A DNA stretch of 64,000 nucleotides. Origin: Alphaproteobacteria bacterium. Lineage in GTDB: Bacteria; Pseudomonadota; Alphaproteobacteria; JAAXGF01. This document shows positions 26,033 to 44,799 of the stretch, piece by piece (within the stretch, counting starts at the first letter, position 1; every line of letters begins with the position of its first letter). The stretch covers positions 3,456,001 through 3,520,000 of the forward strand of contig CAUVXB020000002.1 of the NCBI GenBank assembly GCA_963555825.3. Direction: 5' to 3'. A program made the translations under genes and the position numbers. Below the pieces are notes generated by a model. It saw only the letters and a list, made by a program, of their open reading frames with translations. It did not search any database and was not told where the DNA came from.

Positions 26033-29000
26033 ATGTGGGCAGTCCTTCCAGTCAAGTCTCTCGACGACGCGAAGCAGCGGTTGGGCGGCGTGTTGAGTCC
26101 GCGCGAACGGCGCGCGCTGTTCCGTGCCATGGTCGAAGACGTCCTCGCCGCGCTGTCGGCGGTGCGCGGCCTCGACGGCGTCGCCGTGGTGTCGCGCGAC
26201 GCCGACATCGCCGCCCTGGCGCGGCGCTACGGCGCGCGGTTGATCGTTGAGGACGAGGACCGCGGCCAGACCGCGGCGGTGCGAGCGGCGGCCGAGGCGT
26301 TGGCGGCCGAGGGCGTCGCCGGCATGATCACGGTGCCGGGCGATGTCCCGCTTGTCACGCCGGCCGACATCGAAGCGGTCCTCGCTGCGCACGGCACGGC
26401 TCCCGCGATGACGATCGTTCCCGCCCGTGACGACCGGGGTTCCAACTGCATCGCCTGTTCGCCGCCCGATGTCATGGCGTTCGCCTTCGGCGACGACAGC
26501 TTCGCCAAACACCTCGACGCCGCGCGGAGATTGGGCATCGCGCCGCGTGTCGTCCACCTCGCGAGACTCGGCCTCGACGTCGACACGCCGACCGATCTCG
26601 AGCAGCTGCTGGCGCAGCCTGGCGACAAGTTGACGCACCGCTATCTCGGCCACAACGGCGGTGCGGTGCGGCTCGGTCGCCGCCGATCCGGCGACGACGC
26701 GGCCGCCGGACCGCTCGACCGCGCGGCGGCGGGCGATCGGATGACGCCCGACGATGCGCTGGCTTTGGCGGGCGAAACCGACATCGCGGCGCTGACGCGC
26801 GCCGCCGCCGAGCGCCGCGACGTCGGTCACGGCAACGTCGTCTCCTATTCGCGCAAGGTGTTCATTCCCCTGACCCAGCTTTGCCGCGACGTCTGCCATT
26901 ACTGCACCTTCGCGCAGCCGCCGAGGAAGGGCGAACGCGCCTTTATGACCCGTGACGAGGTGCTGGCCGTCGCCCGGGCCGGCGCCGCGGCGGGCTGCAA
27001 GGAGGCATTGTTCACTCTCGGCGACAAGCCCGAGCTGCGCTACCGCGCGGCGCGCGAAGAGCTGGCGCGGCTCGGTCATTCGACGACGATCGCCTATTTG
27101 ACCGAGGTCGCCGGGCTGGTGCTGCGCGAAACCGGCCTGCTGCCGCACGTCAATCCCGGCGTCATGGACGCCGATGACATTGCCGCCCTGCGGGCCGTCT
27201 CGGTGTCGCAGGGGCTGATGCTGGAAAGCGTCTCGGCGCGGCTTTGCGCCAAGGGCGGGCCCCACTACGGCTCGCCCGACAAGGCGCCGGAAAAGCGCCT
27301 CGAAACGATCCGGCTGGCCGGCGAGGCCCGGGTGCCGTTCACCTCCGGCATCCTGATCGGCATCGGCGAGACGAGGCGGGAGCGCATCGAATCAATACTC
27401 GCACTGCGCGGGTTGCACGAGCGCTATGGCCATATCCAGGAGATCATCGTCCAGAACTTCCGCGCCAAGCCCGGTACACGCATGGCCGGCGTGACCGAGC
27501 CGGACCTCGACGAGCTGTTGTGGAGCATCGCCGTCGCGCGCCTCATCTTCGGCCCGGAGACGACCATCCAGGCGCCGCCCAACCTGAGCCCCGGCGCGGC
27601 GGCCCGGTTGGTGGCCGCGGGTGTCGACGACTGGGGCGGGGTGTCGCCGGTCACGCCGGACTTCGTCAATCCCGAGGCGCCCTGGCCGGCGATCGAACGG
27701 CTGGCCGAGGAGACCGCGGCGGCCGGCAAGGCGCTGACCGAGCGGTTGGCAATCTACCCGGCCTACGCGCGCGACGGTAAGCGCTGGCTCGACGAGGCGC
27801 TGCGCCTTCCCGTGCTGCACGCCGTCGACAGCGAGGGCTTCGCGCGGACCGACCCCTGGCATCCCGGCGGCGGTCAGGCGCTCCCCATCGGGGCGGCGCC
27901 CACCGCGCGCAGCAGCCGCGATCTCGATGCGATCCTCGCCCGCGCCTCGGACGGCGGGGAGCTCGGCGAGGCCGACATCGTCCGGCTGTTCCGCGCCCGG
28001 GGCGGCGACGTCGACGCCGTCTGCGCCGCGGCCGACGAGTTGCGCGCGGCGGTCAACGGCGACGTCGTCAGCTATGTCGTCAACCGCAACATCAACTACA
28101 CGAACATCTGTCAATATCGCTGCGGCTTCTGCGCCTTCTCGAAGGGCAAGTTGAGCGAGAACCTGAGGGGCCGGCCCTACGACCTCGACCTCGACGAGAT
28201 CGCCAGGCGGGTGCGTGAAGCCTGGACGCGGGGCGCCACCGAGGTCTGCATGCAGGGCGGCATCCATCCCGCCTACACCGGCCAAACCTACCTCGACATC
28301 TGCCGCGCGGTGAAGGAGGCGGCGCCCGACATTCACGTCCACGCCTTTTCGCCGCTCGAGGTCTGGCACGGCGCCGAGACGCTCGGCCTGAGCCTTTCCG
28401 AGTTCTTCGCGCGACTGCGCGAGGCCGGGCTCAGCTCACTGCCCGGAACCGCGGCCGAAATCCTCGACGACGAGGTCCGCGCCGTGATCTGCCCCGACAA
28501 AGTGAACACGGCGCAGTGGCTCGAGGTCATGGCGGCGGCGCACGATTTGGGCCTGCGCAGCACCGCCACGATCATGTTCGGCCACGTCGACGCGGCCGAG
28601 AACTGGGCACGCCACCTGCTGCGTGTGCGAAACCTTCAGGCGCGGACTGGCGGTTTCACCGAGTTCGTGCCGCTGCCCTTCGTCTACATGGAGGCGCCGC
28701 TCTATCTCAGGGGCGGCGCGCGCAAGGGCCCGACGTTCCGCGAAAGCCTGCTGATGCACGCGGTGGCGCGACTCGCGCTCAACCCGCACATCACCAACAT
28801 CCAGGCCTCGTGGCCCAAGATGGGGCCCGATGGCGCGGCCGCCTGCCTGCGGGCCGGCGTCAACGACATGGGCGGCACGTTGATGAACGAATCGATCAGC
28901 CGCGCCGCCGGCGCCGCTCACGGCCAGGAACTTGCGCCCGGGTCCATGGTGGCTCTGATCCGAGGCGCCGGCCGCGAGCCGGTGCAGCGCACGACGCTCT

Positions 29001-29113
29001 ATGGCCGGCCACCCCGCACGCGCGTCGATGCCGCCGCCACCGCGCCATCGTTGATCCCCCTCGTCACGCCCCCCGTCACGCGGCGCCGCCGCGGCCAGCG
29101 CGCGGCCGAATAA
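26033..29113 (+). CDS. fbiC: CofC guanylyltransferase fused in frame to FO synthase FbiC (CofG + CofH radical SAM domains)
   Basis: N-terminal WAVLPVK....AKQRL, PGDVPL, GSN, FGDDSF..H and LDVDTPTDL (CofC). Then SYSRKVFIPLTQLCRDVCHYCTF (CofG) and RNINYTNICQYRCGFCAFSKG (CofH), with no intervening stop. Confidence 0.9.
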   Translation: MWAVLPVKSLDDAKQRLGGVLSPRERRALFRAMVEDVLAALSAVRGLDGVAVVSRDADIAALARRYGARLIVEDEDRGQTAAVRAAAEALAAEGVAGMITVPGDVPLVTPADIEAVLAAHGTAPAMTIVPARDDRGSNCIACSPPDVMAFAFGDDSFAKHLDAARRLGIAPRVVHLARLGLDVDTPTDLEQLLAQPGDKLTHRYLGHNGGAVRLGRRRSGDDAAAGPLDRAAAGDRMTPDDALALAGETDIAALTRAAAERRDVGHGNVVSYSRKVFIPLTQLCRDVCHYCTFAQPPRKGERAFMTRDEVLAVARAGAAAGCKEALFTLGDKPELRYRAAREELARLGHSTTIAYLTEVAGLVLRETGLLPHVNPGVMDADDIAALRAVSVSQGLMLESVSARLCAKGGPHYGSPDKAPEKRLETIRLAGEARVPFTSGILIGIGETRRERIESILALRGLHERYGHIQEIIVQNFRAKPGTRMAGVTEPDLDELLWSIAVARLIFGPETTIQAPPNLSPGAAARLVAAGVDDWGGVSPVTPDFVNPEAPWPAIERLAEETAAAGKALTERLAIYPAYARDGKRWLDEALRLPVLHAVDSEGFARTDPWHPGGGQALPIGAAPTARSSRDLDAILARASDGGELGEADIVRLFRARGGDVDAVCAAADELRAAVNGDVVSYVVNRNINYTNICQYRCGFCAFSKGKLSENLRGRPYDLDLDEIARRVREAWTRGATEVCMQGGIHPAYTGQTYLDICRAVKEAAPDIHVHAFSPLEVWHGAETLGLSLSEFFARLREAGLSSLPGTAAEILDDEVRAVICPDKVNTAQWLEVMAAAHDLGLRSTATIMFGHVDAAENWARHLLRVRNLQARTGGFTEFVPLPFVYMEAPLYLRGGARKGPTFRESLLMHAVARLALNPHITNIQASWPKMGPDGAAACLRAGVNDMGGTLMNESISRAAGAAHGQELAPGSMVALIRGAGREPVQRTTLYGRPPRTRVDAAATAPSLIPLVTPPVTRRRRGQRAAE

Positions 29114-29374
29114 TACCAAGGAGCAGTGATAAAGACCCATAGAGACGGCTTGCCGTGGTTCTCGGCTAGGCGCGCCCGTCGCGGTGATGCAGCGCATCAC
29201 AAGGCGGGCGGAACGACGTCCGAGGGCCTCGGCAAGCCGCCCTACGGGTCGCGGCCGCTTATCGCCGGAGGGCGTCAGGAAGCCTAGCCGATGCGCTGAA
29301 TCGCCTGCGGCTCCCTTCCTACCCGGCGAAAAGCGGACGCGATCTCTATGAGTCTTTATCACTGCTCCTTGGTA
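29114..29374. mobile_element. ~260-bp MITE, TA-flanked, directly after the fbiC stop codon
   Basis: IR of about 32 bp: TACCAAGGAGCAGTGATAAAGAC(C/T)CATAGAGA at both ends. Confidence 0.85.
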
Positions 29375-29462
29375 TAAGAGCGGGACGTCCCCGACTCGGA
29401 AGGCTGCGCGAGTTCGCTCATCCGGATGCCCGCCGCGGGCAATGACGACTAGGGGGAACGGG

Positions 29463-29570
29463 ATGATCGATATCCTCGTGCTCTTCCACAGCGTCTCGGA
29501 ACACGCCTGGCGGCTCGCCGAAGCGGTGGCCGAAGGCGCGCGTGTCTGGGCTAGGCGACCAGACAGCTAG
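29463..29570 (+). pseudogene. WrbA/flavodoxin-like N-terminal remnant
   Basis: MIDILVLFHSVSEHAWRLAEAVAEGAR then an early stop. Confidence 0.55.
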
Positions 29571-29574
29571 CCCG

Positions 29575-30519
29575 CTATTCGGCGAGGCGCCAGACTTCGT
29601 CCGCGAAGTACTGCATGTTGTCCAGGGACGCGTCCAGCGACTCGCGCTGGAAGCCGAGCACGAGGTCGCCGACGCCGAGCTCTTCGAGGGCTTGGATGTC
29701 TTCGGCGACGTCCCGGTCGGCGCCCGTCAGGAGTTTCCGCTGACCGTCGTCGGCGGTCGCCGGCTCGGCCGTCCAGTTGCCGCAATAGGCGATCCCGACG
29801 CTCGCGGGGTCGCGGTTGTTCTCTTCGGCGAGCCGGCGCAGTCGCTTGATGGCGTCGGCCATGCGCGCCAAGGTGTCGAGCGGATGGCGCGGGTTCGAGT
29901 AGATCGGATGCCAGGCGTCGCCGTGACGCACGGCGCGGCGCATGGCGGGCGTGCTCTCGCCGCCGACCCAGATCGGCGGATGAGGCTGCTGCACCGGCTT
30001 GGGTTCGAATATGACGTCGGCGACACGGACGTGCTCGCCCTCGAAACGCGGGTCGTCCTCGGTCCATAGCGCCTTGAACGCCTGCAGGTACTCGTCGGTG
30101 ACCCGGCCTCGGTCCTTGAACGGCGGAGCGCCGATGGCCTCGAACTCCTCGGCCAGCCAGCCGACGCCGATGCCCAGGATCATGCGCCCGCCCGACAGTA
30201 CGTCGATGGTCGAGACGACCTTGGCGGTGTGCACGGCGCCGCGCATGGGGATGACGGTCACCGAGGCGAGCAGGCGTAACGACGTGGTGATGGCGGCCAG
30301 GTAGGCCAGATAGGTGAATTGATCGACGCATTCGCCCCAGCCGCTGACGTCGCCGGTCTCGGAATAGGGATAGGCCGAGCCGATGGCGGTCGGTATCACG
30401 ATGTGGTCCGATACGTTAATATGCGAATAATCGAGCGCTTCGGCCCGCTCGATCCAGGCGTCGAGCGATGTCCGCGTGGCCTGCGGACCGGTTTCCGGAA
30501 TTCCCATGCCAATCTTCAT
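29575..30519 (-). CDS. LLM-class F420-dependent oxidoreductase (Rv2161c-like)
   Basis: VSDHIVIP...SAYPY, STIDVLSGGRMILGIGVGWLAEEF, PKPVQQPHPPIWVGGES. Confidence 0.9.
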   Translation of the reverse strand: MKIGMGIPETGPQATRTSLDAWIERAEALDYSHINVSDHIVIPTAIGSAYPYSETGDVSGWGECVDQFTYLAYLAAITTSLRLLASVTVIPMRGAVHTAKVVSTIDVLSGGRMILGIGVGWLAEEFEAIGAPPFKDRGRVTDEYLQAFKALWTEDDPRFEGEHVRVADVIFEPKPVQQPHPPIWVGGESTPAMRRAVRHGDAWHPIYSNPRHPLDTLARMADAIKRLRRLAEENNRDPASVGIAYCGNWTAEPATADDGQRKLLTGADRDVAEDIQALEELGVGDLVLGFQRESLDASLDNMQYFADEVWRLAE

Positions 30520-30565
30520 CGTGGCGGCTCCTATGGCCCGAGGTGATGACGGTGGTGTCGAACGC

Positions 30566-30994
30566 ATGTTAGCCGATGAGCGACGACGGTTTCTAGACGC
30601 GCAGCGGGTCGCCCGGCTGGCAACGGCGGATGCCGAAGGCCGGCCCCATGTCGTGCCGGTCTGCTATGCGCTGGCCGACGACAGCCTCTACTTCACCATC
30701 GACGCGAAACCCAAACGCAGCGGCGGGACGCGACTCAAGCGGCTCTCCAACATTCGGCAAAATCACCATGTCGCGCTCGTCGTGGACCGCTACGACGAGG
30801 ACTGGAGCCGGCTCGGCTGGGTCATGGTGCAGGGACGCGCGGACATCCTCGAGGCGGGCGACGAGCACGATCGCGCCCAGTCCCGGCTGCGCGCCCGCTA
30901 TCGCCAGCTCCGCGAGATGCGGATCGAACATCTCCCGGTCGTCGCCATTCGAATCGAGCGCATCATCGGCTGGGGAGATCTGAGTCCCGCGTAA
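30566..30994 (+). CDS. PPOX-class F420-dependent oxidoreductase (Rv0121-like)
   Basis: RVARLATADAEGRPHVVPVCY, IDAKPK, LKRLSNI, VDRYDEDWSRLGWV. Confidence 0.88.
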   Translation: MLADERRRFLDAQRVARLATADAEGRPHVVPVCYALADDSLYFTIDAKPKRSGGTRLKRLSNIRQNHHVALVVDRYDEDWSRLGWVMVQGRADILEAGDEHDRAQSRLRARYRQLREMRIEHLPVVAIRIERIIGWGDLSPA

Positions 30995-31055
30995 GGCCGC
31001 GCGGTCGTCGGGGCGACGTCGCCTCGAGCAACAATGGCCGCTACGGGTCCAGGCT

Positions 31056-32416
31056 GTTCTCTAACTCGGGGGTTGGTTGTCAAGCTCTCCGTGACGTACC
31101 TGCCGGGTTCACTGTTCTCTCCGCGGTAGGGGCTCGGCCCTCCGCATGATGGCGTTGGAGGACGTTGGCGGATCAATGTGTGAAGCGCGCTTGCCTCGGT
31201 GAGGCATCGCAAAGCCTGGATCGATCTCGCCGACGCCGCCGTCCCGACAGGGACATCGGTTCCGCTCTCGCGGAATGCTTGGACGTTGTTTCCCTATGCG
31301 GCCGCCTCCTTGGTTGACCAGATGAAGTCCGTTCCATCACGCCACATGCGATGGAGGATGACCGCCAGCTTCCGTGCCACGGCGATCTTGGCCTTCTTGA
31401 AGCCGATGCGTTTCCACAACCTGTGACCCCAGGCCTTGAGCGCGCACCATCGCGGCACCCGGGTGAGCAGCACGCCGGCCGCCTCGAAGAGGTAGGTCCT
31501 GAGCATTCGATCGCCGCATTTGGAGATCCGCCCCGTCCAATCGACCTCGCCGGAAGCATGGCGGCGCGGCGTCAGCCCGATGTACGCGCCGACACTCCGG
31601 GAACGTCGGAAGCGGCTCGGCTCGTCGATCGCCGAGTGGAAGGCCAAGGCGGTGATCGGCCCGATGCCTGGAACCGTCATGGAACGTCTGCTGTCCTCGT
31701 CGTTCCGCGCCAGGCCCAGCAGCTTGCGATAGAGCGCGGCGATCTCTCGGCCGACCTTCTCGCGGACTTCCAGAAGGGGCCGAACGGCCTCCGACAAAAG
31801 ACCCTGCCCGCCAAGCAGCTCTTCGACCCGGCGACGGAAGACATTGCCGCCCGCCTTGCCGATGACGAGGCCGAGGTTCTTGAGCAAGCCACGGATCTGG
31901 TTCTCGAGATCACGCTTGATCTTGACCAACTGGGCCCGGCTGTTCAGGACGGCCCGTATCTCGTGGCACGCCACGCTCGACTTGGACCTCCTTGTACCAA
32001 CCGCACTGCATGACCCGCGCGATCCCGGCGGCATCGTTCCGGTCGCTCTTGTTGATCTGCATCGACAGCGCCGCCTTGGCATGACGCGCATCGATGCAGA
32101 TCACCGGCAAGCCGAGCGCCCTGAGCTCATGCCACAGCCAGGTCGTCGTCGGACCGGTCTCCAGACCGATGCGCTTTGCGTGCGGCGCCGTTGTCCTGAT
32201 ATACGCCGCGATTGCCGCCGGCTCCGAGATCACCACGCCCTCGGACACGATCTCGCCGTTGTCATCGACCACGCAGATCGAGGTCTCCTTGAGCGATACA
32301 TCCATTCCAACATACAGTTCCATAGCTGCTCTCCTGCTCTTTCAGTGTGCTCGCCCGGCCCATGCCGGTCGTTGCTACATTAAGGAGAGCAGTGCCCGAT
32401 CCCCGAGTTACGCCAT
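31056..32416 (-). mobile_element. IS110 family (IS1111-type) element; transposase 31294-32323 frameshifted near 31975
   Basis: Subterminal IRs TAACTCGGGG / CCCCGAGTTA. Motifs YVGMDVS, GLETG, KSDRNDA, VPGIGP, GLTP...SG and ARKLAVILH. Confidence 0.9.
31084..31290 (-). ncRNA. Putative bridge/seek RNA of the IS110 at 31056-32416
   Basis: Noncoding region 3' of the transposase containing four segments that match the target flanks and the donor junction (see findings). Confidence 0.7.
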
Positions 32417-32768
32417 GTGTAAAAACCGCCCCCGAGCGCTATCGGCACGATTTTCTCTGAATTCTCGAATTTCTAAACTCAACAAAATCAATATCTTATC
32501 AGAGGACACCTTCGAAGAATTGACCGAACACTCTCCTGTTAGTGGGATTTGCCGGCGTTTTTACACAGCCTGAGCCACAAGCCGACATTCGAGTCTCGCC
32601 GTTAGACCCGGCAATGCGGCATGCCAATGCCGGCAAAACCGCGGCAATGGTCGTAGAGGCTCGGCTTCGCGATCACCAGCACGAAATCATCGAATTCGAT
32701 CATGTACGCCCCCGCTTCATCGTTGGCCCCACCATGCCACAAGCCCGCGCCGGCTTCGGCACGCCGGT

Positions 32769-33635
32769 TCAGGAGGCGCTTCTCACCAGGGGGAAGGTCT
32801 TGCAAGTGATCGGCCCGCCGTGGACCAGGTTCTCGCCGCGCTGCGAGGGGTCCGAGCTCTGGGGCATGTCGTTGTAGGTGACGTCGTCGCCCGCCCAGTT
32901 GGTCGAGAGCGCGGCGCGGCGGCGGTCGAGGCTGTTGCCCGGCGCGCTGTGAAAGGTGCGCGAGTTCCACACCAGGGTGTCGCCGGGCTCCATTGTGCAG
33001 CTCACGATTTCGGCGTCGGGTTCAGCGTCGAAATCGGGCGGCAGGGGCCGGTCTGTCATGGTGTTGGTGTATTCAAGGCCCGGGCCGAACGGGATGACGC
33101 GATAGACCGTGCCCTCGGCGTGCGAGCCTCTGACGAAGCGCAGGGCCGTCTCGGGCGGAATGGCGTCCAGCGCCGTCCAGCAGTTGATGATCTTGGTGCC
33201 GTTCAGCGGATAGTAGGAATGGTCCTGGTGCCAGGGCGTCGCCGCGCCGGCGCAATGGGCCGATTTCACCAGCAGGAAGTCGTAGTAGAAGTTCAGGCTC
33301 TTGGATTCGAGCAGCGGCCAGAAGAGGTCGGCGGCGTGGGACTCGAAGATGAAGCGCCGGAACGGCTCGACCTCCTTCCACATGACCGAGTCATAGTAGA
33401 AGAACCCCTCGCCCCCCTCGGGCGTTACCTTTCCCGCGCTCGAGCCGTGCAGCGCCATGGCCTGTTCGATGCCACTCTCGATCACGTCGAGCCAGTCGCG
33501 CCCGAAGGCGCCGCGCAAGCAGATCACGCCGTCACGCTTGTAGGCGGCGATAGCCTCGGGCGCCGGCCCGCCCGCGACAGGCAGCTCGAAGCTGGCGACC
33601 TCGCCGACGGCCCGATAGCTGCTCGATGCCGGCAT
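32769..33635 (-). CDS. Phytanoyl-CoA dioxygenase (PhyH) family Fe(II)/2OG oxygenase
   Basis: YKRDGVICLR, TPWHQD, WTALD, FVRGSH, MEPGD....RTFHSAPGN...RR. Confidence 0.9.
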   Translation of the reverse strand: MPASSSYRAVGEVASFELPVAGGPAPEAIAAYKRDGVICLRGAFGRDWLDVIESGIEQAMALHGSSAGKVTPEGGEGFFYYDSVMWKEVEPFRRFIFESHAADLFWPLLESKSLNFYYDFLLVKSAHCAGAATPWHQDHSYYPLNGTKIINCWTALDAIPPETALRFVRGSHAEGTVYRVIPFGPGLEYTNTMTDRPLPPDFDAEPDAEIVSCTMEPGDTLVWNSRTFHSAPGNSLDRRRAALSTNWAGDDVTYNDMPQSSDPSQRGENLVHGGPITCKTFPLVRSAS

Positions 33636-33860
33636 CGCATCCCCTCCGGACGCTGGCCCGGCCGTGAAGCTGGTACGGGCCGGATCAAGCGGGCTAATCG
33701 TGGCCTTCACGATAGTCATTCTCGACATGGCGAGGCAAATGAACCGACCCCAGGGGCCTCCCAAATATTGTGCCACTGTAGCAAGAACGGCACGTCCATG
33801 GAAGATCGGGCAACTTTGCCGGCTTCTGGCCGCGCTTCGTCGAGCCACGTCGCTTCCGGG

Positions 33861-34007
33861 GTCCGCTTTGTCGCGGGAACCAGACATCGAAGGTCGAGTC
33901 TCCGAACTCCTCGGCGCCAGGGTCCGCCTACGAGCGGGAACCGGACCTCCAAAGCTCAGAATTGAAACTTCACGGCCTCAATGTCAGCTAACCGGCGTGA
34001 ACCAGAC
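33861..34007. repeat. Cluster of three degenerate palindromic units, 61-bp period
   Basis: GTC(C/A)GC...AACC(A/G)GAC units start at 33861, 33922 and 33983. Confidence 0.7.
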
Positions 34008-34138
34008 CTCCCCGGAGAATCCGGTGACGGTGGAGCATGTCACACCTTCGACCCAAGCCCAAGCGGCCGCGGCCAGGGCGGGGAGCGGGGTAAGCACCCG
34101 AGGAGATGCGCGTCCTGTAACCATCGATCCGTTGCCAG

Positions 34139-34441
34139 CTATTCCCTCTCGACTTGATTCACAAGTCTTTCCAGACCCGTCATCGGACGCGCCTCGCCTC
34201 GATGGCGGCTGTCATAAAATTGAAGGAACCGCAGGAAATCCTCCATTATGCCCTCGGTGTCGAGTGGATCGTCGGTAGCGCGGAAGGCAAACGCCGTGAA
34301 GTTTGCCGCGGCATGACGCAAAGCCGACGCGACAACCATCGGATGAATTCCGGCCTCCAGCTTGTTGTTCGCGAATTCGACGAGTTCGTTCGCTATACCT
34401 CGGCTGACCTCCTCCTGGCCGCTTCTCTCTTCTTCGGCCAT
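34139..34441 (-). CDS. Small hypothetical protein (DUF3144-like)
   Basis: 100 aa with RBS GGAGG and IANELVEFAN...VASALRHAAANF.AF pattern. Confidence 0.65.
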   Translation of the reverse strand: MAEEERSGQEEVSRGIANELVEFANNKLEAGIHPMVVASALRHAAANFTAFAFRATDDPLDTEGIMEDFLRFLQFYDSRHRGEARPMTGLERLVNQVERE

Positions 34442-34576
34442 CGGCTCGACCTCCTATGCCTTGCTGATTGGCCTATCTCCCCCGTTGCTACTGATTGGCC
34501 TGCCAGACAAACTACAAACATTCTCAGGTACGGTAGCACATGGAGCCGCGCGTTTCGCGAATGTCCGCTCGGGGTC

Positions 34577-36260
34577 CAGACTGTGTAAGAACGTTTGCTG
34601 CGTGATCTGTACGGCGCGTCTTTGGCTTCGATGATCCGTCGCGGCGGGTATTCCGGGATTAAGGATTTTCGCCACTCGTGCGGACCTGTCGGCCGGCTGG
34701 CGCCGGTGTGAGCTGCGATTTGGCCGGATATGGGCGCAATTTGCGGCGCAGAGAGGCCTATGCGGTCCTCATCGCCGCGATCAGCGGGTCGATGCCCGTG
34801 ATGTTCATGACGCGCTTGAGATTGTAGGCCAGCACGTGCAGGGCCATCTCGGTCCTCACCCGTTTCAGCGTCTTCGTCTGGAAATGCGTCGCGCCCATCC
34901 AGGACTTGATGGTGCCGAAGGGATGCTCGGCCGTCTCGCGCCGCCGACGCATCGCCTCCGGGTGCTCGTCGAGCCGCCTCTCGACGGCCTCGAGAACATG
35001 CTCGTGCTGCCAGCGGGTGATGCGGCGCTGCTTGGCCGTGGTGCAGCGATGCTTGATGGCGCATCCCTGACAGGCGTTGGTCCAGTAGCGCCGCATGCTC
35101 AGCCCCCTCTCCTGGCTGGTGAAGCGGTAGACCAAACGCTCGCCGGCCGGGCAGCGATAGACATCGTCGGCGGCCAGATAGACGAAGTCCTGTTTGCCGA
35201 AGCGGCCCTTGGCCTTGGCTCCAGAGGTCAGCGGCTTAGGCAATGTGACGGTGATGCCGGCCTCATCGCAGGCCAGAATCTCCTTGCCGTTGTAGTAGCC
35301 GCGATCGGCAACGACATCCAACTCGTCGGTCTCCAGAGCCGCCTTGGTCCGCTTCGCCATGGCTGAGAGCTGGGCGCGGTCGGTGCCCTGATTGGTCACC
35401 TCGTGGGCGACGATCAGGTGGTGCTTGGTGTCGACGGCGGCCTGAACGTTGTAGCCGACCACGCCGGAACCCCGGCCGCTCGTCGCCATCGAGCGGGCAT
35501 CGGGATCGCTCAGAGAGATCTGCTGGTCCGGGCTCGCACGCCGCTCGACTTCAAGCGCCTTCAGGCGCCGCATCTCCTCCTTGAGGATCGCGATCTTGTC
35601 GGCCAGACGAGTCGTCTTGGTCGTGCGCGCCAGCGACGGCTCTTGCCGGTCGGCGCTGTCCAACTGGTCCAGATAGCGCGCAACGCTCTCCTCGATCTGC
35701 GCCACCCGCCGCGCCATCTTGGCCCGCGTGAAGTTCCTGTCCCGGCTGTTGACCGCCTTGAACTTCGAGCCATCGATCGCCACGCTCGCCTCGGCGAACA
35801 GCCCGAGTTGCCGGCACAGCGCGACGAACCGGGCGCAGACCTTGCGGATCGCACGGCCGTTGTCCTTGCGGAAGTCGGCGATCGTCTTGTGATCCGGCGC
35901 CAGCCGGCCGACCAGCCACATCACTTCCACATTGCGCCCGGCCTCCCTCTCGAGCCGACGGCTCGACTGAACCCGGTTGAGATAGCCGTAGATGTAGAGC
36001 TTCAACAAATCGCAAGGATGATAGGCCGGCCTGCCGGTCGCCAGCGGCTCGACCCGGTCGAACCCGAGGCCGCCAAGATCGAGCTCATCGACGAAGACGT
36101 CGATCGCCCGAACCGGGTTGTCGTCGCCGATCCAGTCTTCCAGGCGCTCCGGAAACAACGTGCCCTGGCTGCGATCGACACCCTCGACAAAACGCTTCAT
36201 CAGACCCTCCCGCCAAAGCACGAGAGAATCATAACACCATCGACGTTTTTACACAGTCTG
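34577..36260 (-). mobile_element. IS1182 family element, copy 1; transposase 34758-36200 intact
   Basis: IRs CAGACTGTGTAA / TTACACAGTCTG and 4-bp TSD GGTC. Motifs GRPAYHP, PDHKTIADFR, AIDGSK, GYNVQ, ADRGY, EHPFG. Confidence 0.93.
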
Positions 36261-36597
36261 GGTCAACAGCAGACGTCCAGCGAGCCCGTCTCCGGCGTCC
36301 GCTTTCGAGCGGTAACCAGACCTAAATCGCGCGACTTCCAGATTTCATGAAACTCGCGTCTGCTTTTGAGCGGAAACCGGACGTCGCAGCGTGGTTCGTC
36401 TAATGTCTGCAATTAGCCGAGGGTGTTGAAGAAGTCGGTTGAGGGTCCAATTTCGTGATTTCCCTGGAACCAACGAAATTTTGATTTCAATGAAATCAAC
36501 GGCTTAGGAAACTCCCGATTTCGAAAATTCGGCCGATTCAGGCTCAAAATCGAATATTCGCGACTTCTTCAACACCCTCAGCCATCAGCAGACCTAC
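36261..36597. repeat. Four-unit palindromic repeat cluster (first unit begins 34560; split by IS1182 and a MITE)
   Basis: Units at 36297, 36358 and 36405. Shares exact GAGCGGTAACCAGACCTAAA (36307-36326) with 42656-42675. Confidence 0.8.
36419..36579. mobile_element. 161-bp MITE, IS1182-like ends
   Basis: 19-bp perfect IR GAGGGTGTTGAAGAAGTCG and 4-bp TSD AGCC. Confidence 0.88.
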
Positions 36598-36721
36598 GAG
36601 TGGGAGCGAGAAGTCGATTAATCCTTGCCCAAGCCGAGCCCATCTGGCGCGGCATGGTCGAGAACTTCATCGGCTTCGAGCTGGCCGAGTACAGTCGCAT
36701 CCACGGCGGCTGACCGGCGCG

Positions 36722-37933
36722 TCAGGAACCCAGGCCAAAGGCGGGGCGCAGGCGCACGCCGATCCAGGTGCCGGCGAGCGCGCAGACGATCCACAGCCAG
36801 CCGTGCAAACTCGTCGAGGCGACGCCCGAGAAGAAGGCACCAATGTTGCAGCCGAAGGCGAGGTGCGCGCCGTAGCCCATCAACAACCCGCCGACAACCG
36901 CCGCGACGAGTGATCGCGGCGCGATGCGGAGCGTCGGCGCGAAGCGCCCGGCGAGCCCAGCGGCGGTCAGCGCGCCGAGGACGATGCCGAGGTTCATCAC
37001 CGAGGTGGTATCCTGGAATATACCGCGCGCCAGCGCCCGGGCGGGGAAGCCGCTGTTCCAGAAGGCACTGGCCGCCGGCTCCCAGCCGAGCGCCTGGGCG
37101 GTCTTGGCGCCCCACAGCGTGAACGCCCAGGTGATCGTCCACGGATGGCCAGCGATGAGCAGTGTCACCCAGTTGAGCAGCGCCAGCAGCCCGGCGCTGA
37201 GCAGCAGCGGCCACGGCCCGTGGAGCAAGCACCGCCAGTCGAGCCCGTCACCCCACAGCGGCCGCTGCGCGGCGCCGCCGGCCCAGCGCCTGAGACCCAG
37301 CCAGAGCGCCGCCAGCACGCTAAACTGGAGCGCCAGCGCGAGCGGCCAGCCGAATTCCTGCGCCAGCGACACGCTGCGCCAGCGCGGCGCGGCGGCCCAC
37401 AGGTCCATGTCGAGGCTGCCCCACAACCCGCCGAAGCAGAAGGCCACCAAGGTGACCACCATGCGCGTGCTGCCGCCGCCGACCGTGTAGAGCGTGCCCG
37501 AGCCACAGCCGCCGCCGAGCTGCATGCCGAGCCCGAACAGCAAGCTGCCGACGGCGACCTGGACGCCGACCGGCGCGACCGCGCCGACCACCCCGTGACC
37601 CAGGACCTGGCCCTGGGCGAGCACCGGCGCGAACAGCAGCATCGCGGCGCCGAGCATCACCACCTGGGCGGCGACGCCCGAAATGTCGCGGTGCGTGATG
37701 GCGTTGCGATAGGCCGCGGTGAAACCGAAGGCGGCGTGATAGAGGCTCATTCCGAGCAGCCCGCCGACGACCAACAGCGCGCCGAGCCTCGGGCTGTCGA
37801 GCCCGAGCGCCAGCGCGCCGCCAAAGAGGACAAAAACGCCGAGCGCAGCGACGCCCCATTGTGATGGTGGTCGCGTCGGATCGGCCGCGGCGCTGGGCAC
37901 ACTTACGCGCCCGCCCCCCGGCTCCCTAACCAA
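36722..37933 (-). CDS. YeeE/YedE family sulfur-compound transporter
   Basis: Multi-TM protein with GMQLGGGCGSGTLY and GYGAHLAFGCNIGAFFSG..S.SLHGW. Confidence 0.9.
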   Translation of the reverse strand: MVREPGGGRVSVPSAAADPTRPPSQWGVAALGVFVLFGGALALGLDSPRLGALLVVGGLLGMSLYHAAFGFTAAYRNAITHRDISGVAAQVVMLGAAMLLFAPVLAQGQVLGHGVVGAVAPVGVQVAVGSLLFGLGMQLGGGCGSGTLYTVGGGSTRMVVTLVAFCFGGLWGSLDMDLWAAAPRWRSVSLAQEFGWPLALALQFSVLAALWLGLRRWAGGAAQRPLWGDGLDWRCLLHGPWPLLLSAGLLALLNWVTLLIAGHPWTITWAFTLWGAKTAQALGWEPAASAFWNSGFPARALARGIFQDTTSVMNLGIVLGALTAAGLAGRFAPTLRIAPRSLVAAVVGGLLMGYGAHLAFGCNIGAFFSGVASTSLHGWLWIVCALAGTWIGVRLRPAFGLGS

Positions 37934-37954
37934 TTGCTGATCAATCGGCGGCCA

Positions 37955-38419
37955 TTAATCGAGATTGCTCGCCTTGATCAACAGCGGAATGGGAAACGCC
38001 TTGCCGTGGTGAGGCTCGAATTCATTCGCTGCCAAGAAGTACCACTGGTTCGATTTCATGCTGCCCAGTTGACCTGGGAACCTAGGCAGATCCCCGACAT
38101 TGATACCCGCCTCAACCAGCGGCTTGGCATTCACAAAGTCGATCACGTCTTCCGTGGTGCCGGAAGGGTCGATCGCGTAATGGGTCATGTGTCCGCCCTT
38201 GCCGAGACCAGCGTTGAAGCAGTACTCGCCGCTGACGCTCGAAAAGTCGATTGCCGTCTTCGGTCGAGTCTGGAGATGCTTCGCAATGGTGCTCAGTTCC
38301 GCACCGACGACGGCGGCCTGTCTCAGAGCCGCCGCAGCCTTTTCGGCCTCAGTCGCGGCAAATCCTAGATTGGGCAGCCCAATGATGACGACCACTGCCC
38401 CGATAAGAAGCATTTTCAT
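37955..38419 (-). CDS. Secreted hypothetical protein
   Basis: Signal-peptide-like MKMLLIGAVVVIIGLPNLGFA and RBS GGAGG. Directly upstream of the YeeE gene. Confidence 0.7.
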   Translation of the reverse strand: MKMLLIGAVVVIIGLPNLGFAATEAEKAAAALRQAAVVGAELSTIAKHLQTRPKTAIDFSSVSGEYCFNAGLGKGGHMTHYAIDPSGTTEDVIDFVNAKPLVEAGINVGDLPRFPGQLGSMKSNQWYFLAANEFEPHHGKAFPIPLLIKASNLD

Positions 38420-38695
38420 CGTTCTCCCTCCCAATGTTTTAATCAGCCCCAGGGCCTGGCCATGTATTTTGGATACGACACGGCCGGGCCAAGCCGACAA
38501 AAAATCCGCCGCAGCTAAGCTGGGCGGTTATCCGATCGCTTTAGCTGCATTTATAACGCGCCCGCAATCTGATTAGGTCAAATCGGCGCGTAATCGCAAG
38601 CTAGGGCGAGTCCTTACGAGCGTCAAGGGAGCCCGGCGCTGCAAACGCTTCCGACAGCCTTTGGTCTTCATCGCATTCAACACGATGATGCTGTC

Positions 38696-39037
38696 GTGAA
38701 CGACTGCCAGGTTTGGCTCGCCGAGCATTACGCCGTTCTGGACCCGGTCTCGGCGATGATCGAGCGTTCGGGGCTGCCGCCGACGACGTTCGCCCGCCGG
38801 TTCAAGCGCGCGACCGGGTATCGCCCCATGGACTATGTCCACACCTTACGGGTCGAGGAAGCCAAGGAAATGCTCGAGATGAGCGACTGCACCATCGATC
38901 ATGTTGGGCACGAGGTAGGTTACGAGGACCCGTCGTCGTTCCGGCGGCTGTTCAAGCGCAAGGCAGGTTTGACACCCAGCGACTATCGGCGCCGCTTTGG
39001 CAGTCGCCGGTTCGACCAATATGAACTGGTGCATTGA
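38696..39037 (+). pseudogene. GlxA/AraC regulator, C-terminal HTH only
   Basis: RRFKRATG..P..Y...LRVEEAK.MLE and VGYED.SSFRRLFKR..GLTPSDYR. The DJ-1 sensor domain is missing. Confidence 0.75.
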
Positions 39038-39227
39038 GCTGCCAATTAAAGTTTACCCGTGTTTGCAACAGACTCACGATCTCGGTCGGGATGATCGGGT
39101 CGGGCGGGTATGTGACGTCGAAACCGATTGGACCGACGGGATTCTCGCGGCTGATCAGCGCCGCACTTTCCGAATCGCCCCGCGTGACGCTGAATGTGAA
39201 CTCAAGCGGGTCGGCCGCCGTCGCGGG

Positions 39228-39284
39228 CGCGTGACAGCCCCGCACAAGCAACCGCCCGTCACGGGCATCGTCTTCTCTCCCATC
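39228..39284 (-). pseudogene. GFA family N-terminal remnant
   Basis: MGEKTMPVTGGCLCGAV behind RBS AGGAAGG, after which homology is lost. Confidence 0.55.
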
Positions 39285-39400
39285 ACGTCCTTCCTGGTTT
39301 TCTTGTTATCGATTTTCGAACGTCATGGTCGCGCTATCAGGTCGGCAAGTCGAGTCCACGGTCGGCCTTTTGCTCCGTGCCCCAATGACCGCTTTGGGTC

Positions 39401-41085
39401 CAGCCTGTGTGAGAACGTTTGCTGCTATTTCTGTGTGGCGCGTCTTTGGGTTTGGATGATCAGTCGGGACGTGTTTTCCGGGATTATGGATTTTCGCCGC
39501 TCGTGCGGGCTTTTCGGCCGGCTGGCGCCGTTGTGAGCCGCGATGTGGCCGGGTATGGGCGTAATTGTCGGCGCAGGGGCGCTATGCCGTCCTGATCGCC
39601 GCGATCAGCGGGTCGATGCCCATGATGTTCATGACGCGCTTGAGATTGTAGGCCAGCACGTGCAAGGCCATCTCGGTCCTCACCCGCTTCAGCGTCTTCA
39701 TCTGGAAGTGCGTCGCGCCCATCCAGGCCTTGAGGGTGCCGAAGGGATGCTCGGCCGTCTCGCGCCGCCGACGCATCGCCTCCGGGTGCTCGTCGAGCCG
39801 CCTCTCGACGGCCTCGAGAATGTGTTCGTGCTGCCAACGGGTGATGCGGTGCTGCTTGGCCGTGGTGCAGCGATGCTTGATGGCGCATCCCTGACAGGCG
39901 TTGGTCCAGTAGCGCCGCATGCTCAGCCCCCTCTCCTGGCTGGTGAAGCGGTAGACCAAACGCTCGCCGGCCGGGCAGCGATAGACATCGTCGGCGGCCA
40001 GATAGACGAAGTCCTGTTTGCCGAAGCGGCCCCTGGCCTTGGCTCCAGAGGTCAGCGGCTTAGGCAACGTGACGGTGATGCCGGCCTGATCGCAGGCCAG
40101 AATCTCCTTGCCGTTGTAGTAGCCGCGATCGGCAACGACATCCAGCTCGTCGGTCTCCAGAGCCGCCTTGGTCTGCTTGGCCATGGCTGAGAGTTGCGCG
40201 CGGTCAGTGCCCTGATTGGTCACCTCGTGGGCGACGATCAGGTGATGCTTGGTGTCGACGGCGGCCTGAACGTTGTAGCCCACCACGCCGGAACCCCGGC
40301 CGCTCGTCGCCATCGAGCGGGCATCGGGATCGCTCAGAGAGACCTGCTGGTCCGGGCTCGCACGCCTCTCGACTTCAAGCGCCTTCAGGCGCCGCATCTC
40401 CTCCTTGAGGATCGCAATCTTGTCGGCCAGACGAGTCGTCTTGGTCGTGCGCGCCAGCGACGGCTCTTGCCGGTCGGCGCTGTCGAGTTGCTGCAGATAG
40501 CGCGCAACGCTCTCCTCGATCTGCGCCACCCGCCGCGCCATCTTGGCCCGCGTGAAGTTCCTGTCCCGGCTGTTGACCGCCTTGAACTTGGCGCCATCGA
40601 TCGCCACGCTCGCCTCGGCAAACAGCCCCAGTTGGCGGCACAGGGCGATGAACTGGGCACAGACCTGGCGGATCGCAGAACCATTGTCCTTGGCCGAAGT
40701 CGGCGATCGTCTTGTGATCCGGCGCCAGCCGGCCGACCAGCCACATCACTTCCACATTGCGCCCGGCCTCCCTCTCGAGCCGACGGCTCGACTGAACCCG
40801 GTTGAGATAGCCGTAGATGTAGAGCTTCAACAAATCGCAAGGATGATAGGCCGGCCGGCCGGTCGCCAGCGGCGCGACCCGGTCGAACCCCAGACCACCA
40901 AGATCGAGCTCATCGACGAAGACGTCGATCGCCCGAACCGGGTTGTCCTCGCCGATCCAGTCTTCCAGGCGCTCGGGAAACAACGTGCCCTGGCTGCGAT
41001 CGACACCCTCCACAAAACGCTTCATCAGACCCTCCCGCCAAAGCACAAGAGAATCATAACACCATCGACGTTTTCACACAGGCTG
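39401..41085 (-). mobile_element. IS1182 family element, copy 2; transposase 39582-41025 frameshifted near 40693
   Basis: IRs CAGCCTGTGTGA / TCACACAGGCTG and TSD GGTC. Two overlapping partial ORFs. Confidence 0.92.
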
Positions 41086-41166
41086 GGTCACAAGATGCTA
41101 TGAGGCTGAAGGACGCAGCCTCAAGCTCCTTCGATTATTTCAACCTCGATCAGAAGGAGCGACACG

Positions 41167-42300
41167 ATGGCACAGTTTCCGGTATCGACCTCCAATGAAC
41201 ACGCTATTTATGCGGCACTGGAGTTGAGCAAGAACAGCTGGCTTTTGGCGATCCAGGCTCCGGGGCGGGGCAATCCGAGCTTGCATCCGATCAAGGGCGG
41301 CGACGCTGAAGGACTGATGGCCAAGCTGGACGCGGCGCGGGACCGGGTGGTCAAGGTGACGGGTCGAACGCCGACGATAACGCTGTGCTACGAGGCCGGC
41401 TACGACGGCTTCTGGTTGGCGCGGTTCCTCGAGCAGCGCGGCATCGAGTGTCTGGTCATGGAGCCGGCCAGCTTGCGGGTCAACCGCCGGGCGCGGCGGG
41501 TGAAGACCGACCGCATCGATGTCGAGAATATTCTTCATACGCTGATCGCCTGGTGCCGCGGCGAGCGTCATGTCTGCTCCATGGTGGTGATTCCGAGCGT
41601 CGCGGAGGAGGACCTTCGCCGCTCTCATCGGGAACGTGACCGATTGGTCCGCGAGCGAACCGCCCACATCAACCGGATCAAGGGTCTGCTATTCGGTCAG
41701 GGCATTCGCGGCATCAATGTCAAGGCGCGCTACAAGACCTTGACACCGGCGGCGCTGGTCACCGGAGACGGCCGACCCCTGCCGGACCGTCTCGGCCGCG
41801 AGATCGCGCGGGAGATCGCGAGACTGGCCCAGGTCCAAGCGCAGATCGTCGAGGTCGAGCGTGAGCGTGATCAAGCGCCGACACCGTGTGTGGCCACGGA
41901 AAGCAAGCGTCACCAGCTGCTGCGCTTAAAGGGCCTCGGCCCGGCCTTATCCACGACGCTCGCACGGGAAGTCTATTATCGCCAGTTCGCCAATCGCCGA
42001 CAGGTGGCAAGCTATATCGGGATCACGCCCAGTGCCTATGACAGCGGCGACGGGCGCCGCAGCCAAGGCATCTCCAAGGCGGGCAATCGGCTGGCACGGG
42101 TTGCCATGATCGAAGCCGCATGGCTTTGGGTCCGCCATCAACCCGATAGCGCTCTGACCCAGTGGTTCCATGACCGCACCCAAGGTCAGAAGGGGCGCAT
42201 CAGGCGCGTCATGATCGTCGCCCTGGCCCGCAAACTGGCGATCGCGCTTTGGCGGTATCTGGAAACCGGGCTGATCCCGGTGGGTGCTGTCGTCAAATAG
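41167..42300 (+). CDS. IS110 recombinase/transposase
   Basis: ALELSK, CYEAG, KTDRID, GITP..YDSG, GISKAGN, ALARKLAIALWR. Confidence 0.93.
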   Translation: MAQFPVSTSNEHAIYAALELSKNSWLLAIQAPGRGNPSLHPIKGGDAEGLMAKLDAARDRVVKVTGRTPTITLCYEAGYDGFWLARFLEQRGIECLVMEPASLRVNRRARRVKTDRIDVENILHTLIAWCRGERHVCSMVVIPSVAEEDLRRSHRERDRLVRERTAHINRIKGLLFGQGIRGINVKARYKTLTPAALVTGDGRPLPDRLGREIAREIARLAQVQAQIVEVERERDQAPTPCVATESKRHQLLRLKGLGPALSTTLAREVYYRQFANRRQVASYIGITPSAYDSGDGRRSQGISKAGNRLARVAMIEAAWLWVRHQPDSALTQWFHDRTQGQKGRIRRVMIVALARKLAIALWRYLETGLIPVGAVVK

Positions 42301-42309
42301 GACTGCGGA

Positions 42310-42590
42310 TCAGCTCAGCGTTCTAACGGGCTTCATTCCCCGATGGGAACGCTTGTTGGCAGGTTGGATGTGTGACTGCATGTCTCCTTGGCGAAGGTGC
42401 CGTCCACAAGATTAGTCCCATCCCCGTCCTGTGATGGTCCATGTATACAGCATTGTGGCAAGCCGGATCGGAGCTGCCGGATATAAGGTGATGCGATCAC
42501 TCGCACGAAACATGGAACTCATCGCAAGACCCGCCCTGGATACAAAGCCATAACCAATGGAAGAGACGATCATGTGGCGTAGATTAAATC
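42310..42590 (+). ncRNA. Putative bridge/seek RNA of the IS110 at 41095-42618
   Basis: Contains ATGTCTCCTTG (42380-42390) and CGTCCACAAG (42401-42410), which match target flanks, and ATATAAG (42481-42487), which matches the donor end. Confidence 0.75.
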
Positions 42591-42618
42591 CACCTTGACA
42601 GCAAACGCCTCATATAAG

Positions 42619-42780
42619 GAGACATTGGCGGAGGCGGCGTGCGATGTCCGCTTCGGAGCGGTAACCAGACCTAAAAGCCCCATTGCCAAATTTCACGATA
42701 CTCGCGTCTGCTTTCGAACAGAGAGCGGTCCTCGCAGCGTCACTCGCCCAAGGTCAGCCTGTCGCCGGGACCCGACATTC
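42619..42780. repeat. Four-unit palindromic repeat cluster (first unit begins 39384; split by IS1182 and IS110)
   Basis: Units at 42646, 42706 and 42753, colinear with 36261-36420. Confidence 0.8.
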
Positions 42781-42905
42781 GAGAGTCCGCAAAAATGTTA
42801 CCCGTGTACGTCCATCGATGGCGCGACGACCCTATTATCACGCCCATCCTCCCGGTCAACCTGGCGGGTCGCAGCTTCAAGGCGACCGAATGCGGCGTGA
42901 CCCGA

Positions 42906-42969
42906 GCCGGGTTTTCGCATGGCCGGGTTTTCGCATGGCCGGGTTTTCGCATGGCCGAGTTTTCGCATG
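42906..42969. repeat. 16-bp tandem repeat x4
   Basis: GCCGGGTTTTCGCATG three times plus GCCGAGTTTTCGCATG. Confidence 0.95.
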
Positions 42970-43108
42970 GATGGTCACAAAATGGTCACGACTCAGTCAA
43001 TACGGGTCGATATGGATCATGACGGGACGGGCGTGAGAACCCATAATAATGGCGGATTCCCGGACGATGCAGCACGGTCCGAGACGGACCAATACGGCTT
43101 GAATGGAA

Positions 43109-43139
43109 TTTCGAGACCGCCCCGTTCGACCACGCCGGC
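43109..43139 (-). other. tRNA-Ser(CGA) 5'-half fragment; probable att-site remnant
   Basis: Minus strand GCCGGCGTGGTCGAACGGGGCGGTCTCGAAA (D-arm to anticodon loop). No 3' half is present. Confidence 0.55.
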
Positions 43140-43698
43140 GGCCCGCCGCCGAGAGCGGCGGTCGCGTTTCCGCCGCGCGTCTCGAGTGTGTCGGTCGAGC
43201 CCGTCGAGGGCGGTGCCGTCGCCGATGGTCCTAGATGTTAATCGCCCCGTCGATAAAGGCTCTGGCGCACTGAGGGTACGGGTTTGGTAAAGCGTTAATG
43301 CGCTAGTAAGATGCATTGCGAATCAATCTTGCGCTCTGACGATCTTCGCAAACGTTTCCACGCAACCAAAACCCAAGCCGGCCCATAGGTATGGCTATTG
43401 CCAAACGGCAATCATCGGCCAGGTGCGGTCGGTCGAGTCTGCTACCCTCAGGGCCGGTTTAGGATCAGAAAGCGGTCGATTAAGGTTCACCGCGCAGACG
43501 GTGAAAGTTGACCCGAAGCCGAATTTTCTGGGTTGGCGGCAGGTATGAGGAATTGTGGCTTGCGTGAGCTAGCGATCGATCACTGCGCCGTCCCAGGGCG
43601 CCAAGTTATGATCAAGGAGCCGCTTCCATCGTTCTAGACAGCAAGAATTCTCACAGGTAGCCAATCCGTCCGAAGGCGTTTGCAGATTGCAGCTTGAC

Positions 43699-44601: not shown

Positions 44602-44799
44602 TGTTAACCTCAAGGGAACAGTCCGCTGGCCGATGTCGAAGCGACCGTGTGGAGAAATATTATGCGGCTCAGTTTAGCTCAGCTAATACACTAAGCCGAA
44701 AATCTCGCTTGCCGTCAACCGCAATGCAGGTCCACTCTAACGCGGAGAATAGCGGGTCGGGCGGTGCGACGGAGCCGTCCTCCGGAATCGTGGAAGGAC

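Follow-up and report, generated by a model that had tools for sequence, protein, structure and literature searches.

The defective insertion sequence (IS) at positions 31056–32416 (minus strand) of a 64,000-nucleotide (nt) stretch of an Alphaproteobacteria bacterium genome (GenBank assembly GCA_963555825.3, contig CAUVXB020000002.1, forward-strand positions 3,456,001 to 3,520,000; the whole stretch is hereafter called the window) appears to belong to a bridge RNA- or seekRNA-guided element that is specialised on the ends of IS1182-family elements, a reading to which we give a probability of roughly 90%. This reading is supported by the anatomy of the element, the specificity of its site and orientation, the covariation of guide and target among homologues, the IS1182 context of those homologues and a conserved fold of the predicted target-binding loop. 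For the production and binding of the RNA, the formation of a circle and the position of the crossover we extrapolate from published relatives.

Four segments of a candidate guide RNA match target and donor

The element carries 238 nt of non-coding DNA downstream of its transposase gene (tnp; 31056–31293, minus strand) versus 93 nt upstream, and this 3′ region, a candidate bridge RNA or seekRNA gene, folds with a z-score of −2.82. Four segments can be read in it on the minus strand. Guide segment 1, TCCAGGCT (31213–31220), is complementary to the right flank AGCCTGGA of the top strand, and guide segment 2, TTCACAC (31178–31184), equals the left flank plus an AC core, in 6/7 positions here and in 7/7 at C2:1372882 (C1 and C2 are contigs of this genome). 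Donor segment 3, ACGCCAT (31149–31155), is complementary to the left end of the element, ATGGCGT, and donor segment 4, AGAGAAC (31114–31120), is identical to the right end and invariant in all 67 loci compared below. At least three of the four occurred together in 0 of 20,000 shuffles of the 231-nt non-coding region, and a four-segment match by chance is excluded; taken singly, the reverse complement of the right flank turned up in 75 of the shuffles, the left flank (with at most one mismatch) in 2078, the complement of the left end in 402 and the right-end word in 367.

On the element strand the window copy lies between ...GGCGGTTTTTACAC on the left and AGCCTGGACCC... on the right, with GTTTTTACAC as the left-half word of the target. 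The two guides span 17 target bases, 15 of which fall within the terminal repeat of the IS1182-type element or of the related miniature inverted-repeat transposable element (MITE) that is hit: the left half is wholly internal, and segment 1 spans 6 bases of the repeat tip and 2 bases of the flank. The AC core is shared, ending both the left flank and the element in 67/67 loci used; the core of IS621 is reportedly CT.

We propose that RNA from the 3′ non-coding region would aim the recombinase. Its 5′ guide, UCCAGGCU, would pair with the top strand in the right half of the target and its 3′ guide, UUCACAC, with the bottom strand in the left half, and ACGCCAU and AGAGAAC in a second region would match the joined ends of the excised circle (AGAGAAC^ATGGCGT, where the caret marks the joint or, below, the insertion point). 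Strand exchange would occur at the AC core common to target and donor, and insertion would part the tip of the repeat from its remainder in one orientation.

A defective copy of an IS1111-type element

By its sequence, the element is a member of the IS1111 group of the IS110 family, whose defining features fit except for the right terminal extension. The window copy, 1361 base pairs (bp) long with ends common to six full copies in the genome, reads on the minus strand from ATGGCGT on the left (32416–32410) to AGAGAAC on the right (31062–31056). Its transposase is split into an N-terminal part with the DEDD/RuvC-like domain (31910–32323, minus strand; PF01548, E 6.7e-10), ended by a frameshift, and a C-terminal part in the shifted frame (31294–32091, minus strand; PF02371, E 9.9e-23). 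The cause is a 2-bp deletion, AA missing at element position 438 (window about 31978/31979) relative to four other full copies, which shifts the frame and leaves the window copy unable to make transposase, its ends and guide being intact. A contig of RNA-library run X2 has two extra bases at 31978.

Three of the six full copies are 1363 bp long with an intact gene of 343 amino acids (aa), and one carries a 34-bp insertion at element position 139. The window copy and the copy at C2:2016856, both 1361 bp and both without the AA at position 438, are 100% identical. The intact protein scores 252.3 bits against NF033542, “IS110 family RNA-guided transposase” (cut-off 140), its length lies within 330–350 aa, and it contains GLTPRRHASG, which fits the IS1111 motif GL-P----S(t)G. 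Database annotation of the element and its relatives gives nothing more specific than “IS110 family transposase”.

Subterminal inverted repeats lie 7 bases inside each end, AACTCGGGG on the left (32401–32409, minus strand) and CCCCGAGTT on the right (31063–31071, minus strand). Written as TAACTCGGGG/CCCCGAGTTA, they begin 6–7 bases from each terminus and are exact over 10 bp, shorter than the 11–13 bp that PMC11187229 gives as usual for the family. The terminal extensions beyond them are 7 and 7 bases, and the shared AC(A) permits sliding to 9/5 or 6/8. Near the right end, TTGACA (31083–31078, minus strand), within GAGCTTGAC, is almost invariant in 57 homologues and is a possible −35 of an outward-facing or junction promoter; no −10 partner judged by eye was convincing, and no promoter is claimed.

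Insertion at one position of IS1182-type ends

All six full copies occupy one position, GTTTT(T/C)ACAC^AG(C/T)CT. The left flank is GTTTT(T/C)ACAC in every case, and the final right flank, after any tandem pieces, is AGCCTGGA in four copies, AGTCTGGA in one and AGCCTAGT in one. The best-matching target is written GTTTT(T/C)ACAC^AGCCTGGA, its right half made of 6 bp of repeat tip and 2 bases of flank. Comparison of empty and filled sites gave no target duplication apart from the shared AC, and a single fixed orientation.

In the window the host is a 162-bp MITE whose ends are of IS1182 type, and the insertion point lies 6 bp inside the outer tip of one of its terminal repeats. The outer 6 bases of the interrupted repeat, CAGGCT, remain at 31050–31055, and the other 156 bp of the MITE follow at 32417–32572, comprising the inner part of the interrupted repeat, GTGTAAAAAC (32417–32426), and the intact opposite repeat (32557–32572), which holds the uninterrupted site GTTTTTACACAGCCTG 140 bp away. 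Intact MITE copies of 161–162 bp occur elsewhere in the genome; their ends, CAGNCTGTGTRAAAAC, are shared with full IS1182 elements of 1684 bp, and the MITE interior is unrelated to the IS. Within the window, GTTTTCACACAGGCTG lies at 41070–41085, placing TTCACAC at 41073–41079, and the related ends beyond the host MITE lie at 34577–34592, 36245–36260, 39401–39416 and 41070–41085, for a window total of 5 target-like ends versus 0.04 expected from shuffles.

The original prediction, made from the letters of the window, had named the four segments on the minus strand, an IS1182-like MITE repeat as the interrupted host with its empty site, an exact TTCACAC at the IS1182 end at 41073, and the frameshift; all of these are borne out. 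Its span for the element, 31050–32425, gave the right location and took in 6 and 9 bases of the host repeat beyond the element proper. Because three intact copies exist, the frameshift would not need to be repaired for the insertion assay that it proposed.

The occupied repeats are of both kinds, four copies lying in one MITE repeat and two in the other, and all six insertions are in MITEs, none in the 15 full-length IS1182 copies. AGCCTGGA is found at 4/6 occupied ends versus 3/61 unoccupied ends (Fisher p = 6e-4), and the ends of the full IS1182 copies read AGTCTG or AGGCTG; a restriction to MITEs fits this rarity of the best right half at free ends. The host MITEs of the window copy and of C2:2016856 differ at 19/162 positions despite the identity of the two elements, for which reason the defective variant was probably moved in trans, with the three intact copies as source, gene conversion being the alternative. 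The MITE that hosts the copy at C1:1664825 has its other repeat filled as well, by a truncated element (C1:1664415–1664674) with 74% identity across the first 221 bases.

A shared site might also reflect descent, if the element had entered one MITE once and had then spread with it by means of the IS1182 transposase. The host MITEs of the window copy, C1:1664825 and C1:935107 are indeed nearly identical (158–160 of 162 bases), as such a history would have it, but we consider it very unlikely: the element is found in either repeat of the MITE, the two identical frameshifted copies sit in the diverged MITEs just described, insertion cuts the very repeat that the IS1182 transposase would need, and homologues with matching guides are present in dozens of other genomes, at the same position in IS1182-family repeats that have diverged.

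Guide and target vary together in homologues

A homologue scan with one genome per species gave 229 relatives, of which the best 80 (69–90% identical) were taken. In 66 of these 80 loci the subterminal repeat allowed the ends to be defined, and the 66 together with the window copy form the covariation set of 67. Fourteen loci were dropped: L033 and L102 for short flanks, L100 for having no left flank, L078 for an unclear left end, L038, L058, L067, L092, L105 and L107 for having no subterminal repeat of at least 9 bp, L079 and L091 for a repeat that was not the subterminal one, L075 for a 385-nt non-coding region and L051 for a right end reading AGAGTAA. Relatives found in 13 genomes of the same family (L014–L017, L019 and L021) were excluded as copies about 50% identical or less with other ends. 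More than 7800 relatives score at E 1e-40 or better; the 66 examined loci are mostly from Alphaproteobacteria.

The right end AGAGAAC is invariant among the homologues, and the left end is ATGGCGT or, more commonly, ATGGGGT. Their flanks fall into five classes, ...TTTTCACAC^AGCC..., ...TTTTGCAAC^AAAATC..., ...TTTTTCAAC^AG(T/C)ATCGG..., ...TTCTTCAAC^A(G/C)CCTCGG... and ...TTTTTCGAC^AGCATCGAC, and the guides follow them. Segment 2 equals the final 7 bases of the left flank in 59/67 loci, with a mean of 6.87/7 versus 5.34 for shuffled pairings: TTGCAAC, TTTCAAC, TTTCGAC, TTTACAC and CTTCAAC each equal their own left flank. For segment 1, at least 7 of 9 positions agree with the reverse-complemented right flank in 47/67 loci (mean 6.73/9 versus 4.99 shuffled), so that, for example, GTCTTGGCT pairs with AGCCAAGAC and ACCCTGGCT with AGCCAGGGT; the guide class TTGCAAC, which belongs to another IS1182 repeat type, goes with CAGATTTT. 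For either segment, 0 of 2000 shuffled guide–flank pairings reached the observed mean, where the loci are mutually related and hence not independent trials; they hold 28 distinct guide pairs.

A transposase that reads the IS1182 repeat by itself, with the 3′ words incidental or left over from earlier targets, would account for the constancy of the donor words and for the fact that no RNA has been observed here. We rate this as less likely still than joint descent with the MITE, since both target words track the flanks across the 28 guide pairs in transposases that are 69–90% identical, the sister elements L036 and L037 (support 99) use different IS1182 repeat classes, and related IS1111 elements require RNA for transposition according to PMC11187229.

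On a quick tree built from 64 transposases, after three rows containing stops had been removed, the target classes need at least 13 changes, the minimum possible being 4, and well-supported branches force the CACAC class to at least three separate places, so re-aiming between types of IS1182 end has happened repeatedly.

IS1182 context in other genomes and in the window

A partner repeat or an IS1182-family transposase lies within 2.4 kb in the left flank of 42/66 homologue loci. An inverted copy of the rebuilt 18-base target (at most 4 mismatches) is present in 28/66 left flanks, for which our own arithmetic puts a chance 18-mer match at about 0.01 per flank; 18 of these partners are 120–260 bp away, as in a MITE, and 10 are 1400–1800 bp away, as in a full IS. 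A transposase related to the IS1182-family one of the window occurs in 24/66 left flanks, whereas among right flanks 5/66 have the partner repeat and 0/66 the transposase. Three distant left-flank transposases, 23–26% identical to that of the window, all score over 400 bits on NF033551 (IS1182). The neighbouring transposase has the opposite orientation in 15 loci and the same one in 9, so insertion can take place at either end of an IS1182 element. Beside a match on a plasmid of Bradyrhizobium sp. CB82 (69% identical) no IS1182 transposase is annotated, just hypothetical proteins.

The IS1182-family transposase of the window (34758–36221, minus strand) itself scores 452.9 bits on NF033551 (cut-off 270). 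It belongs to the first of two 1684-bp elements, at 34577–36260, where it is intact with 487 aa; in the second, at 39401–41085, the gene is split between two frames (39582–40607 and 40375–41046, minus strand). Among 20 paired elements of the genome (15 full, 5 MITE), 16 have an identical 4-bp direct repeat, GACC, GGTC, AGCC, GAAC or GTCC, and because this repeat bounds the elements the IS1182 tip is fixed at CAG/CTG. The window MITE is an exception, with GGTC versus AGCC at 31046–31049 and 32573–32576.

These 20 copies are flanked by a degenerate palindrome of approximately ATGTCYGC-N4-(4-bp duplication)-N4-GCRGACAT. Both arms are present by a strict test in 6/20, and strict empty units number 43 versus 16 on the reversed sequence. 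The three-tier parasitism that had been put forward, with a repeat unit below IS1182 or its MITE and the IS1111-type element on top, stands in its upper two tiers; for a palindromic unit as the lowest tier the evidence is suggestive but falls short of proof. That this unit is the true target, attracting both elements to one hot spot, is the least likely explanation that we considered: IS1182 and MITE copies do lie in the palindrome and segment 1 does extend 2 bases past the IS1182 tip, but 15 of the 17 guide-covered bases are inside the repeat, no part of the left half, GTTTTTACAC, extends beyond it, and 0/6 copies sit at a unit lacking an IS1182-type repeat.

Predicted fold of the guide RNA

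Folded jointly, 57 distinct non-coding regions give a consensus structure of 40 pairs, with 98.4% of cells paired. Seven pairs changed on both sides, versus a shuffled mean of 3.6 (0/500 shuffles reach 7) and 0–6 for slid partners. The predicted target-binding loop (31161–31240, minus strand) consists of an outer stem, an internal loop and an apical hairpin and folds at −34.6 kcal/mol (z −3.09). Its outer stem of 12 pairs joins alignment columns 89–103 with 155–168 and its inner stem of 4 pairs, which carries a variable hairpin, columns 114–117 with 141–144; segments 1 and 2 are placed between the two stems, on the 5′ and 3′ sides of the internal loop. Segments 3 and 4 flank a conserved hairpin; in many IS1111 RNAs the donor-binding bases are in a multi-loop, as PMC11208160 describes. 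The 3′ region and part of tnp are also represented in contigs from four RNA-library runs; contigs of this kind show neither transcription, ends nor level.

Tandem right-end pieces

Behind four of the six full copies, parts of the copy's own right end are repeated in tandem, as two pieces of 203 bp (C2:1372476–1372882) and as single pieces of 23 bp (C1:1666188–1666210), 630 bp (C1:345595–346224) and 122 bp (C1:936504–936625). Numbered on the intact element, their first bases are 734, 1161 (twice), 1242 and 1341, and 5/5 junctions are preceded by AC. The 203-bp piece contains the whole candidate guide RNA. The junction at 1242 directly follows TTCACAC, inside the DNA that encodes guide segment 2; because the DNA of the left guide copies the left half of the target and this junction lies exactly there, the element's own guide DNA, to judge from these junctions, served as a look-alike target.

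The genome also holds three decayed right ends from a related element of IS1111 type, at C2:2842355–2842537, C2:840560–840645 and C1:346345–346465. Their guide words, CCGAGG... and CTTCAA, correspond to a second class of IS1182-type repeat, TTCAAC^AGCCTCGGC, which is present in this genome too, for example on contig C2 at offset 181742 (minus strand, ...GCCGAGGCTGTTGAAAAAG...). In two of the three decayed ends a 45-bp insertion interrupts the conserved GTCCCTGYCGGGAC hairpin.

Neighbouring features

A second, different IS110-family element at about 41083–42631 (plus strand) starts at the outer tip of the IS1182 repeat at 41070–41090. It encodes a 377-aa transposase (41167–42300; NF033542, 204 bits) and has at least 12 near-identical copies in the genome. 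A SAM-alpha riboswitch (RF00521) at 38520–38599 (minus strand; 42.6 bits, gathering score 36) was the sole match of an Rfam 15 scan of positions 28000–45000.

Discussion

Guidance by an RNA aimed at IS1182-family ends remains our preferred reading, and several observations weigh against it. As regards the guides, segment 2 of the window copy fits its own left flank in just 6/7 positions, and in 5/67 loci (L031, L037, L062, L087 and L104) the right flank is unrelated to segment 1 (at most 3/9); in L037, L062, L087 and L104 the left flank is still a perfect match to segment 2, and the five right flanks look like later rearrangements of the right end. As regards the donor side, segments 3 and 4 are nearly invariant, so covariation is no test of them, most homologues combine the left end ATGGGGT with ACGCCAT as segment 3, which leaves one mismatch, and the donor region alone folds no more stably than shuffles (z 0.01). 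The structure used in the covariation test came from the same alignment, which favours that structure, and the Rfam scan of 28000–45000, at E up to 1, placed no family on the element. No end-to-end joint of the kind expected at a circle junction was present in the contigs of the four RNA-library runs, contigs that cannot exclude one. The left flank has neither a partner repeat nor the transposase in 24/66 homologue loci, 3 of them short-flanked. Lastly, the terminal extensions are never 7/3, the usual arrangement in IS1111 elements according to PMC11187229, a feature that is descriptive and not defining.

Set beside these points, the two expectations that the original prediction attached to homologues have fared well. 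Insertion sites enriched for IS1182 ends are found in the excess of partners in left flanks over right ones, and the covariation of guide and target in both guide segments exceeds that of shuffled pairings. The outcome named there as speaking against targeting, unrelated insertion sites for elements with identical guide segments, occurred in the five loci above and there concerned only the right flank.

Partridge and Hall in 2003 reportedly described IS4321 and IS5075 as targeting the terminal repeats of Tn3-family transposons. Those elements are likewise IS1111-type and enter the terminal repeat of a different transposable element at a single position and in a single orientation; they differ in guide, target and ends, and their victims are Tn3-family transposons, in contrast to the IS1182-family IS and MITEs here.

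The window element resembles ISEc11, ISPa11, ISKpn4 and ISPst6, the seekRNA elements described by Siddiquee et al. 2024 (PMC11187229): the DEDD transposase has 330–350 aa and contains the GL-P----S(t)G motif, the inverted repeats are subterminal, and tnp is followed by a long non-coding region. With the IS1111-type seekRNAs of the same source it shares a top-strand match lying 5′ of a bottom-strand match, the two overlapping at the crossover. The RNAs of those four elements were purified and reprogrammed, whereas that of the window element is predicted; their targets are a linear site, repetitive extragenic palindromic (REP) sequences or attC sites instead of IS1182 ends, and their terminal extensions are 7 and 3 bases instead of 7 and 7. 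The bridge RNA of IS1111 elements is in the right end in the account of Durrant et al. 2024 (PMC11208160). That account likewise gives IS621 a two-part bridge RNA with target- and donor-binding regions, both strands read and a shared core, as proposed here, but IS621 is of the IS110 group, has its RNA in the left end and reverses the guide order relative to the window element. ISPpu9, according to Pares-Guillen et al. 2025 (PMC12288879), has extra copies of a small-RNA module downstream of or apart from the transposase gene; the extras in the present genome are similar in this respect and differ in being 3′ pieces in tandem, each beginning at an internal AC site of the element.

Both mechanism and class are already known (PMC11187229 and PMC11208160, with IS4321 and IS5075 for the targeting of transposon ends), and no new mechanism is revealed. 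Full-text searches, judged by title and abstract, turned up no publication in which an element of IS1111 type is directed to IS1182 ends, and the supplementary target logos of PMC11187229 may already list a member of the lineage. Few RNA-guided insertion sequences are known to target another mobile element, and the locus adds a well-documented natural example. The 28 natural guide pairs and their targets, in closely related recombinases, are data from which one could learn how IS1111-type bridge RNAs and seekRNAs pair, how far they tolerate mismatches and what they require of the core. For annotation, the finding explains why IS110-family genes often abut IS1182 ends or MITEs, and why stray right-end fragments lie beside them.

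A broader proposal, which we hold tentatively and at slightly less than even odds, is that the element belongs to a large and widespread IS1111-type lineage that lives only on IS1182-family elements, its guide repeatedly re-aimed to follow the diverging ends of IS1182 elements whose transposases are as little as 23–26% identical to each other. Cutting 6 bp off the tip of the repeat may disable that end of the IS1182 element or MITE. If the proposal is true, this IS1111-type lineage would be a natural brake on IS1182 elements and their MITEs, and the element would at the same time be a target of itself.

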